From: Escherichia coli
Lineage (GTDB): Bacteria; Pseudomonadota; Gammaproteobacteria; Enterobacterales; Enterobacteriaceae
NCBI RefSeq assembly: GCF_003334315.1
Contig: NZ_QOWR01000020.1
Reading direction: 5' to 3' (one strand)
Length of the DNA: 64,000 nucleotides
Shown: positions 61,225-63,108 of the stretch, one piece after another
How the letters are laid out: every line of letters begins with the position of its first letter
Position numbering within the stretch: position 1 is the stretch's first letter
Notes under the pieces: generated by a model
What the model was told of the DNA's origin: nothing
Seen by the model: only the letters and a program-made list of their open reading frames with translations
Databases searched by the model: none
Made by a program: the position numbers and the translations under genes

Positions 61225-63108
61225 ATGATTAAAAAAGCTTCGCTGCTGACGGCGTGTTCCGTCACGGCATTTTCCGCTTGGGCACAGGATACCAGCCCGG
61301 ATACTCTCGTCGTTACTGCTAACCGTTTTCAGCAGCCAGTAAATACTGTCCTTGCACCTACTGATATTGTTACCCGTGAGGATATTCAACGCTGGCAGTC
61401 GAAAGACCTCAACGATGTTATGAGTCATCTCCCCGGTGTAAATATCTCTCAAACTGGTGGAATGGGGACGAGTTCTTCTCTTTATGTTCGTGGCACTGAA
61501 TCGCGCCATGTTTTAGTGTTGATTGACGGAGTGCCGATGGCTCGTGCCGGTATCGACAATGCAATTGATATTAGCCAGTTCCCGGTATCACTTGTACAGC
61601 GTGTTGAATATATTCGTGGGCCGCGTTCTGCCGTTTATGGTTCTGGTGCCATCGGAGGTGTGGTGAACATTATTACAATGAGTAATGATGAGAAAGCTCA
61701 GATCAACGCAGGAATGGGTACAAATGGTTATCAAGCCTATGATGGGGTAATAAATAAACGTTTTGGCGATACGATGGTAACAGCAGCAGGTGCTTACCAG
61801 ACGACCAAAGGTTTTAACATTCAGCCTGGCTCACCATACAGTGGTGATAGCGATCGCGATGGATATCGCAACAAACTTTTCTGGGGGGGGCTGCAGCATA
61901 AGTTTAACGATAACTTCTCGGGGTTCTTCCGTGGTTACAGCTACACAGCTAATAATGATTACGACCAGGGCTCGATGTATGGTTCTGCTACTGGCAACGA
62001 AGAAGCTCAGAATTACAACCAGTCCTGGGATACTGGCCTACGCTATAACTCCGGCATCTATTCGTCTCAGTTAATTGCTAACTATCAACGACTCAAGAAT
62101 TATAACTACACAAATAATCTTGGTCGTTATGCGGGAGATGCCACCCTGGATGACATGGAACAGCGTTATATTCAGTGGGGTAATAGCATTGAGGTAGGGC
62201 ATGGTGCAATTAGCGGCGGGATCGATTGGAAACAGGAAAAACTGACGTCCAGCAGCATTACAAAATCAGATGATTACGAACGCGATACCACCGGGTTATA
62301 CCTGACTGGACAGCAACAGATTTCCAATGTGACTTTGGAAGCTTCTGGCCGAGAAGATCATGATGAACAGTTTGGCTGGCATGGTACCTGGCAGACAGCT
62401 GCTGGCTGGGAGTTTATTGATGGCTACCAGGCAACACTTTCTTACGGTACCAGTTTTCTTTCGCCTTCTCTTGGACAGCAATACGGGGCTGCTCGCTTTG
62501 CTTCAATTTATGGTCCTGGTATTGCAGCCAACCCAAATTTGAAGCCAGAAGAATCTAAACAGTGGGAGATTGGAATTGAGGGGGTAACTGGGACTCTGGA
62601 TTGGCGGCTCTCAGGATATCGTTATGAAATTCAGAACCTGATTGATTATAAAAACATAAATAATGTCAACCAGTACATTAATGTGAAATCAGCCACGATT
62701 AAAGGGCTGGAATGGACGGGAAATATTACAACCGGTCCTGTTGAACATCGCTTGACGTTACAATATGTTGACCCGCGCGATGATGAAACAGATAAAGTGC
62801 TGTACCGTCGGGCAAAACAGCAGGTTAAGTACGAGTTGACTGGACAAGCTTATGGTTTCGAATGGGACGTTTCTTACCAATATATAGGTCAACGATACGA
62901 CAACGCTTATGACGAGACCTCTGGCTCATCACATACAGTTAAATTAGGCGGTGTGAGCTTGTGGGATCTTGCGGTTGCATATCCGGTCACCTCTCATCTG
63001 ACAGTTCGTGGTAAAATAGCCAACCTGTTCGACAAAGATTATGAGACAGTCTATGGCTACCAAACTGCAGGACGGGAATACACCTTGTCTGGCAGCTACA
63101 CCTTCTGA
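61225..63108 (+). CDS. btuB: TonB-dependent vitamin B12 / colicin E / phage BF23 outer-membrane receptor BtuB, divergent mosaic allele (627 aa)
   Basis: Start trimmed to MIKKASLLTACSVTAFSAWAQDTSPDTLVVTANRF (signal peptide and TonB box); C-terminus ...YQTAGREYTLSGSYTF with terminal Phe. The centre is AT-rich and differs substantially from the K-12 protein I recall. Confidence 0.92.
   Translation: MIKKASLLTACSVTAFSAWAQDTSPDTLVVTANRFQQPVNTVLAPTDIVTREDIQRWQSKDLNDVMSHLPGVNISQTGGMGTSSSLYVRGTESRHVLVLIDGVPMARAGIDNAIDISQFPVSLVQRVEYIRGPRSAVYGSGAIGGVVNIITMSNDEKAQINAGMGTNGYQAYDGVINKRFGDTMVTAAGAYQTTKGFNIQPGSPYSGDSDRDGYRNKLFWGGLQHKFNDNFSGFFRGYSYTANNDYDQGSMYGSATGNEEAQNYNQSWDTGLRYNSGIYSSQLIANYQRLKNYNYTNNLGRYAGDATLDDMEQRYIQWGNSIEVGHGAISGGIDWKQEKLTSSSITKSDDYERDTTGLYLTGQQQISNVTLEASGREDHDEQFGWHGTWQTAAGWEFIDGYQATLSYGTSFLSPSLGQQYGAARFASIYGPGIAANPNLKPEESKQWEIGIEGVTGTLDWRLSGYRYEIQNLIDYKNINNVNQYINVKSATIKGLEWTGNITTGPVEHRLTLQYVDPRDDETDKVLYRRAKQQVKYELTGQAYGFEWDVSYQYIGQRYDNAYDETSGSSHTVKLGGVSLWDLAVAYPVTSHLTVRGKIANLFDKDYETVYGYQTAGREYTLSGSYTF

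Follow-up and report, generated by a model that had tools for sequence, protein, structure and literature searches.

Why does the divergent core of a mosaic btuB gene in Escherichia coli give way to native sequence shortly before murI, the essential glutamate racemase gene whose start codon lies inside the 3' end of btuB? The question is raised by a 64,000-nt stretch of E. coli DNA (RefSeq assembly GCF_003334315.1, contig NZ_QOWR01000020.1; hereafter the window, with positions counted from its first letter), for which the initial annotation had suggested that constraint from murI ends the divergent block before the btuB tail. We identified strong nucleotide constraint around the murI start that BtuB protein function cannot explain. 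The likely answer to the question, in our judgment, is a murI/btuB control block of ~190 nt with stacked functions, which serves as a conserved homology arm bounding an exchangeable btuB core. On this explanation, the murI-linked constraint is the ultimate cause of the conserved tail and not a filter on recombinants, and it does not set the junction at 62946/62947.

The mosaic structure was read from a four-way alignment. Coming from the trmA side, the window matched K-12 exactly up to and including btuB nt 104 (61329), and it was K-12-like again from 62947 through murI, with 2 single-nucleotide polymorphisms (SNPs) in the tail relative to K-12 (62979 and 62997), and the core between these native flanks had only ~55% identity to K-12, with a sharp switch at either end. 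The mosaic gene with a K-12-like 3' tail therefore stands as initially described. The K-12 btuB-murI pair has the same genes, the same 56-nt overlap, and the same frame, and its tail sequence is identical to that of the window from 62998; unlike K-12, however, the window btuB core belongs to the other of 2 deep clades (clade II). In the segment from 62947 to 63003, the window matched Escherichia sp. E1V33 (clade I) at every position and K-12 at all but 2.

Nucleotide conservation of the btuB tail and early murI

Conservation was assessed in the murI loci of 80 Enterobacteriaceae species (the best 80 loci, all from this family). The loci were found via 6 peptide patterns, one of which was MATKLQDG, so that the sample is slightly biased toward genomes keeping the MurI N-terminus. 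Relative positions (rel) take the murI ATG as anchor (NC_000913.3:4165428 in K-12 and 63053 in the window). Nucleotide diversity per 10 nt was 0.01 to 0.09 from rel -49 to +56, compared with 0.17 to 0.39 from -110 to -50, and reached 0.17 to 0.30 in downstream murI, with third positions at 0.4 to 0.7. Measured as divergence of non-Escherichia sequences from the window, the same profile was 18% (clade I) and 31% (clade II) at -106 to -50, 5% at -49 to +56, 12% at +57 to +144, and 22% further into murI. The few variable sites of the block (63004 to 63108) tracked genus groups, with Klebsiella/Raoultella and the Citrobacter freundii group each having their own states.

We analyzed synonymous diversity as third-position diversity, using only codons with a conserved amino acid. 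The last 37 btuB codons had values of 0.13, 0.07, and 0.06 versus 0.4 to 0.7 elsewhere in the gene, and the lowest 16-codon windows (0.047 to 0.07) were all located in the tail, whereas the minimum among 212 inner windows was 0.42. The initial annotation had proposed this comparison of the end of btuB with the rest of the gene. The first 24 btuB codons, beside the riboswitch, were also lowered (0.16 and 0.34). In murI, codons 1 to 48 had synonymous diversity of 0.06, 0.13, 0.28, and 0.31, followed by 0.46 to 0.60 afterwards, and the depression thus extended 90 nt beyond the btuB stop into sequence that encodes MurI only.

The tail could, in principle, be conserved only as the C-terminal strands of BtuB, needed for barrel closure and as an outer-membrane insertion signal, with murI being incidental. 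Outer-membrane barrels typically have a conserved aromatic C-terminus, and the last 37 BtuB residues were 94 to 99% conserved as amino acids. However, protein constraint leaves synonymous sites free, and other stretches of btuB with conserved amino acids, including the plug and the TonB box, had synonymous diversity of 0.44 to 0.64, as against 0.05 to 0.13 in the tail. With the depression also continuing past the btuB stop and a transcription start site (TSS) mapping inside the block, we consider the protein-only explanation very improbable.

Table 1. Coordinates of features at the btuB/murI locus of the window and 3' limits of the btuB core swaps
Feature	Position	Strand	Remarks
Cobalamin riboswitch, btuB leader	60970-61159	+	Rfam RF00174, 87 bits; within the conserved 5' flank; flank identical to K-12
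btuB coding sequence	61225-63108	+	Open reading frame (ORF) and translation; 627 aa; stop TGA 63106-63108; clade II ("window-type") allele in E. coli backbone
Divergent (imported) btuB core	61330-62946	+	~55% nucleotide identity to K-12, sharp edges
Native Escherichia-type btuB tail segment	62947-63003	+	Moderately conserved across genera; upstream of the invariant block
Nearly invariant 105-nt block	63004-63108	+	Probable murI promoter, leader, start codon, 56-nt dual-coding stretch
Extended -10 motif TGgTAAAAT for murI	63009-63017	+	Inside btuB codons R-G-K-I; activity in this strain inferred
murI transcription start and 28-nt leader	63025 / 63025-63052	+	K-12 TSS; Shine-Dalgarno (SD)-like GAG
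murI (glutamate racemase, 285 aa)	63053-63910	+	ORF; starts MATKLQDG; PDB 2JFN match, E-value 1.6e-185 over residues 1-285
btuB/murI overlap	63053-63108	+	Last 18 BtuB codons and stop; MurI codons 1-18 and two bases of codon 19
Conserved RNA hairpin 1	63116-63151	+	8 nt after btuB stop, murI codons 22-33; RNAalifold and pair counts
Conserved RNA hairpin 2 (GAGAUCCGG...CCGGAUCUC)	63167-63193	+	Likely determinant of btuB 3' end at 63197
Window-type swap	rel -107 (62946/62947)		Last core difference
EC42405-type swap	rel -94		Last core difference
A3 swap	rel -76		Last core difference; plus two SNPs (-74, -56) common with window
Salmonella arizonae vs diarizonae	rel -67		Last core difference; next at +86

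Probable dual coding in the btuB/murI overlap

The murI frame is +1 relative to that of btuB (BtuB TAT GGC TAC versus MurI ATG GCT ACC), and the RefSeq annotation gives an identical overlap of 56 nt in K-12 and all other E. coli records fetched. An ATG at the anchor with the btuB stop exactly 56 nt on was identified in 87/87 loci, comprising the 80 Enterobacteriaceae species and other strains. The initial reading of the murI start as lying 56 bp upstream of the btuB stop in a different frame thus holds well beyond this strain, and the arrangement is not a chance one.

Because, in this phase, the third position of a btuB codon coincides with a second position in murI, and the third position of a murI codon with a first position in btuB, nearly every change in the overlap alters one of the 2 proteins. 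The btuB third positions within the overlap were nearly invariant across the 80 species, and the few variable sites alter MurI K4, G8, T10, or P11 or one of 2 BtuB residues. Residues 1 to ~20 of MurI are an extension, with other solved glutamate racemases aligning only from about residue 21 to 26.

An in-frame ATG at 63041, 12 nt before the murI start, is where the mechanical ORF list begins murI. As a conserved start codon it was rejected, with ACG present in 79/80 species. The ATG at 63041-63043 results from a C>T substitution at 63042 that is specific to E. coli, and only 1 Escherichia among the 80 species genomes has it. On the minus strand, a 63-aa ORF (62987-63178) covers almost exactly the conserved block and probably stays open only because the sequence is frozen.

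A probable murI promoter and the K-12 transcription start inside btuB

The invariant block opens with GTTCGTGGTAAAAT, which includes the motif TGgTAAAAT. Its -10 hexamer matches TATAAT at 5/6 positions and has TGn directly upstream, giving an extended -10 motif, and 8/9 positions of the whole motif were invariant in 81 aligned sequences, with the ninth differing in a single one (TAGAAT). None of the 3 btuB synonymous sites within the motif varies, in contrast to the 2 such sites that follow downstream.

From the motif, transcription was predicted to start near K-12 position 4165399. The TSS and transcription termination site (TTS) data came from 1 public K-12 SMRT-Cappable-seq dataset (supplementary tables of PMC6131387) and not from this strain. 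In rich medium, a capped 5' end with 121 reads was reported at NC_000913.3:4165400, and transcripts from it reach 4166543, covering b3967 (murI) only (PMC6131387). This TSS corresponds to rel -28 and lies 8 nt after the hexamer, inside the 6 to 9 nt spacing of such promoters, in K-12 sequence that is identical in the window. The murI initiation region that the initial annotation had placed in the tail is thus present but larger than supposed, including a promoter and a leader in addition to the start codon. We infer both promoter activity in this strain and the terminator function considered below.

RNA structure offers another reading of the constraint from -28 to +56, in which structure for murI translation or mRNA stability would be the main cause, with promoter and dual coding secondary. 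The predicted fold of 62993-63160 was more stable than shuffled sequences (z = -2.6), and the helices in question include a possible leader hairpin over the SD-like GAG (63025-63031 paired with 63042-63049), a helix at the AUG, and a hairpin at 63065-63095. Further, those sites that commonly vary either lie in predicted loops or are compatible with wobble pairing (C>U opposite G 63021, G>A opposite U 63075, and the E. coli C>U at 63042). However, no two-sided compensatory changes were identified in these helices, in a region too invariant for the test, and no Rfam family was found at the block at the gathering threshold or at E-value <=1, with only 2 chance-level eukaryotic matches. We regard RNA structure as an unlikely main cause; it is compatible with the control-block explanation and not exclusive of it, and it may contribute to the constraint from -28 to +56. 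The pairing of the AUG with 63019-63022 and the hairpin in the leader, over the SD-like GAG, were weighed separately as the cause of the upstream constraint; both had one-sided, wobble-compatible changes only, and we treat them as no more than a possibility.

Conserved hairpins and the end of the btuB transcript

Downstream of the btuB stop, we identified 2 conserved RNA hairpins in early murI codons, with compensatory changes at synonymous murI sites in both. In hairpin 1, the pair 63124/63142 was GC in 51 sequences, CG in 9, AU in 6, GU in 4, and UG in 1, with 4 unpaired, and 26 cells were changed on both sides compared with 4.9 in shuffles. In hairpin 2, the pair +119/+135 was CG in 45, UG in 25, and UA in 10 (80/80 paired), and the pair +117/+137 was AU in 69, GC in 6, and GU in 1, with 4 unpaired. 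The G+C-rich stem of hairpin 2 has 9 to 11 bp and a stability of -16 to -21 kcal/mol in the 6 species folded.

In M9 medium, the btuB transcript runs from 4163398 to 4165572, with 21 reads and 0 read-through, and covers b3966 only (PMC6131387). Its TTS corresponds to rel +144, 4 nt after the hairpin 2 stem, and coincides with the limit of reduced synonymous diversity in murI (codon 48 = +144). The btuB and murI messages thus share 172 nt (63025-63197). Hairpin 2 may instead be a processing or exonuclease stop.

With the btuB transcript ending inside murI and the murI promoter lying inside btuB, a further possibility is that B12-regulated transcription and translation of btuB modulate murI, whether by occluding its promoter, by ribosomes passing over its leader, or via the hairpins that both messages contain. 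Such modulation would couple the supply of D-glutamate for the cell wall to btuB activity, and the block would also be a universal homology arm that lets the phage and colicin receptor core move freely between genera. We give this coupling a small chance only.

Taken as a control block, the ~190 nt from 63004 to 63197, with the overlap in the middle, would be kept at the nucleotide level across Enterobacteriaceae for several functions stacked on the same sequence. An extended -10 promoter would start murI transcription at ~63025 and be followed by the 28-nt leader and the murI start codon; the next 56 nt would encode both the last BtuB beta-strand and the MurI N-terminal extension, up to the btuB stop; and the 2 hairpins would end the btuB transcript at ~63197. 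In such an arrangement, btuB and murI would be separate, partly overlapping transcription units, and the essential murI would escape the B12 repression of btuB.

Evidence weighing against the control block

Several observations count against this interpretation or narrow it. The TSS and TTS rest on a single K-12 dataset, in which the btuB reads are modest (21 and 10). A consensus promoter scan of 62500-63300 found no promoter on the + strand; the scan demands a -35 hexamer, and an extended -10 promoter is invisible to it. A terminator scan of the same interval, which demands a strong U-run, found none, and the tail after hairpin 2 (CAUUACAUUUAUGC) is weakly U-rich; because of these 2 results, we name hairpin 2 a 3' end determinant and not a classic terminator. 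The leader (SD-like GAG), AUG, and overlap helices had solely one-sided, wobble-compatible changes. Viable, orientation-biased transposon insertions inside the overlap have been obtained in the laboratory (TraDIS preprint), and these data suggest that truncated MurI starts can work when forced, so that the MurI N-terminal extension is not strictly essential in the laboratory, though kept in nature. Within E. coli, 122 genomes had <99% identity in the block versus 21 in a murI control stretch, an excess due to a two-SNP haplotype that includes MurI T10I. Finally, 57 nt separate the window junction from the invariant block downstream of it, and the junction falls in a stretch where typical clade II species differ by ~31%; a pure model of crossover in a conserved arm does not predict its position.

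The 122 E. coli genomes at 95 to 99% block identity were also considered as carriers of foreign tails, which was rejected: in CFT073 (NC_004431.1), the mismatches are 2 SNPs and 3 N characters. The 2 SNPs, which are the real block differences of CFT073 from K-12, are T>C at -11 and C>T at +28 (MurI T10I), and the N characters of this old record, at rel +35, +61, and +96 in the overlap and early murI, inflate its mismatch count.

Two deep btuB clades and an exchangeable core

Across the 80 species, BtuB formed 2 clades with <=57% amino acid identity between them, with 35 species K-12-like and 43 window- or A3-like. Both clades are present within Escherichia, Salmonella, Citrobacter, and Enterobacter, in a distribution that conflicts with the species tree. 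The window BtuB had 57% amino acid identity to K-12 BtuB and 83 to 89% to BtuB of Salmonella (many serovars), Citrobacter, and Kluyvera. Its donor lineage was not found, the closest non-E. coli protein being 89% identical. A third E. coli allele, A3 (612 aa, ~69% nucleotide identity to the window core), was 91 to 93% identical to BtuB of Citrobacter amalonaticus and C. sedlakii. As the 2 clades cross genera and A3 resembles Citrobacter BtuB, the btuB core is an exchangeable cassette.

Allele counts were taken over 5426 complete E. coli genomes. The window-type core at >=99% identity was identified in 284 of them (~5%) and A3 in ~89 (~1.6%), and genomes with neither core had K-12-type or disrupted btuB. 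A fourth allele, in E. coli EC42405, is A3-like and ~91% identical to A3. We compared 6 window-type carriers from different E. coli backgrounds, including the enteropathogenic strain E2348/69 and an O169:H41 strain. All had a common 3' junction and differed from the window at 3 to 6 core sites, with none in 63004-63108, a sequence pattern that fits a single import followed by spread within the species. The 5' junction of the imported core is, unlike the 3' junction, polymorphic among strains, as carriers vary within the first 90 nt of btuB (61251, 61260, 61266, 61269, 61275, and 61311), with some of the states also present in the A3 allele.

A hybrid btuB was identified in E. coli HS-01, being window-type to 61671 and clade I afterwards, with the switch at 61671/61674, where the internal (plug) patch of highest conservation ends. 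The clade I part of this gene, which RefSeq calls frameshifted, also differs from K-12 at many sites.

Among the other genomes, ~91/5426 had no blastn match to the window core and may have disrupted or further alleles. In E. coli PEC403, an IS4-family insertion splits btuB, with murI and the 3' tail intact. Two btuB/murI matches sit on records labelled plasmid and represent a second copy in those genomes. In EC42405, murI has a separate cluster of 12 differences (rel +314 to +377, window ~63367-63430) that looks like a second small recombination patch.

Junctions of the core swaps

Clade-diagnostic sites stop at rel -77, and the 4 independent swaps of Table 1 all end upstream of the murI promoter. 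For the window type, A3, and the Salmonella pair, in which the 5' edge was mapped, the divergent block began at btuB +105 to +113. Both E. coli imports retain the E. coli T at 63042 and the Escherichia C at 63051; provided that the donors were typical genomes from outside Escherichia, the crossovers took place before the murI start.

These junctions bear directly on the proposal that murI constraint ends the divergent block. In its strictest form, recombinants with a foreign block running through the murI start arose but were selected out, as they damaged an essential gene. The essentiality of murI, the failure to delete btuB in the Keio collection owing to the overlap, the position of all 4 swaps, and the retained states at 63042 and 63051 are what this explanation would lead one to expect. 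However, the tails of both clades differ from E. coli by just ~5% at -49 to +56, at sites that vary freely in healthy species; clade-diagnostic differences end at -77; a foreign tail would work as well as the native one and would largely escape notice; and the 5' edge, at btuB nt +105, behaves alike without an overlapping gene. Since the tail is essentially common to both clades and to every genus, recombinants would offer selection no difference to work on, and we consider such a filter improbable. The constraint on the tail that the initial annotation proposed is thus real, whereas its role as a filter did not hold and the exact breakpoint is left unexplained by it. Likewise, its expectation that breakpoints respect the murI start agrees with all 4 swaps, with the window junction nonetheless falling short of the block.

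A different account treats the near-identity of the tail as the product of repeated recent horizontal spread, a recombination hot spot homogenized across genera and not kept by purifying selection. The btuB cores clearly move between genera, and the junctions cluster beside the block. It would, however, require ~105 nt to be homogenized over ~20 genera while adjoining murI third positions are near saturation, and it sits poorly with variable block sites that follow genus groupings and invariant positions that coincide with the promoter motif and the TSS. We judge it to be as far-fetched as the protein-only explanation.

Under the control-block explanation, the middle of btuB would be a cassette in 2 deep clades moving between genera, presumably under phage and colicin pressure, with bounds conserved for regulatory reasons: the riboswitch leader and the first 105 nt at the 5' end, and the murI/btuB control block at the 3' end. 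Sequences of all clades converge at both ends; homologous recombination would therefore resolve in them, and there is no foreign tail to import. The divergent block would stop short of the tail mainly for lack of divergence beyond that point.

Relation to known systems and significance

The fliC flagellin gene and genes of other phage-receptor outer-membrane proteins have conserved ends and an exchangeable variable middle. The likeness to btuB is that a divergent middle is replaced between conserved flanks and that alleles cross species, in conflict with the species tree; in btuB, however, the ends appear to be held by regulatory and overlapping-gene functions and not only as structural ends of the protein. 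Promoters inside ftsA and ddlB serve the downstream ftsZ. There, too, a sigma-70 type promoter inside an ORF freezes synonymous sites and gives independent downstream expression, whereas the btuB and murI ORFs overlap and the btuB transcript ends inside the murI ORF.

The overlap itself is already known, and the TSS and TTS rows are public. It has been reported that btuB cannot be deleted cleanly owing to the overlap and that insertions there show an orientation bias (TraDIS preprint), and one paper treats the pair as a btuB-murI operon. In the literature searched, which covered few subscription journals and not the original murI papers, we found no description of an internal murI promoter or of btuB allele classes. 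Nor did we find in it the cross-species invariance, the TSS/TTS match, or the link to cassette boundaries, a weak statement given that coverage. The new elements are the invariance across genera, its agreement with the TSS and TTS, the covariation in the hairpins, the two-clade cassette structure of btuB, and the grouping of the junctions. Each of these is a known kind of thing, and general principles are unchanged by these results.

The analysis provides a testable anatomy for a junction that complicates every btuB knockout. Deleting or recoding within 63004-63197 would cost murI its promoter, leader, or start, or btuB its 3' end. A murI promoter and message separate from btuB would explain how the essential gene escapes B12 repression. 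Further, BtuB, the receptor for T5-like phages and E colicins, has at least 3 very different forms in E. coli between fixed anchors, which bear on phage and colicin host range and on the design of phage therapy.

Minor variation was also observed in murI downstream of the control block. MurI of the window differs from PDB 2JFN at residues 261-262 (TE instead of PG) and 274 (G instead of E). At the 3' end of the gene, the window differs from K-12 at 63833, 63837, and 63879 and from 6 other E. coli strains at 63833 and 63879; these differences (63833-63837 and 63879) look like ordinary allelic variation.

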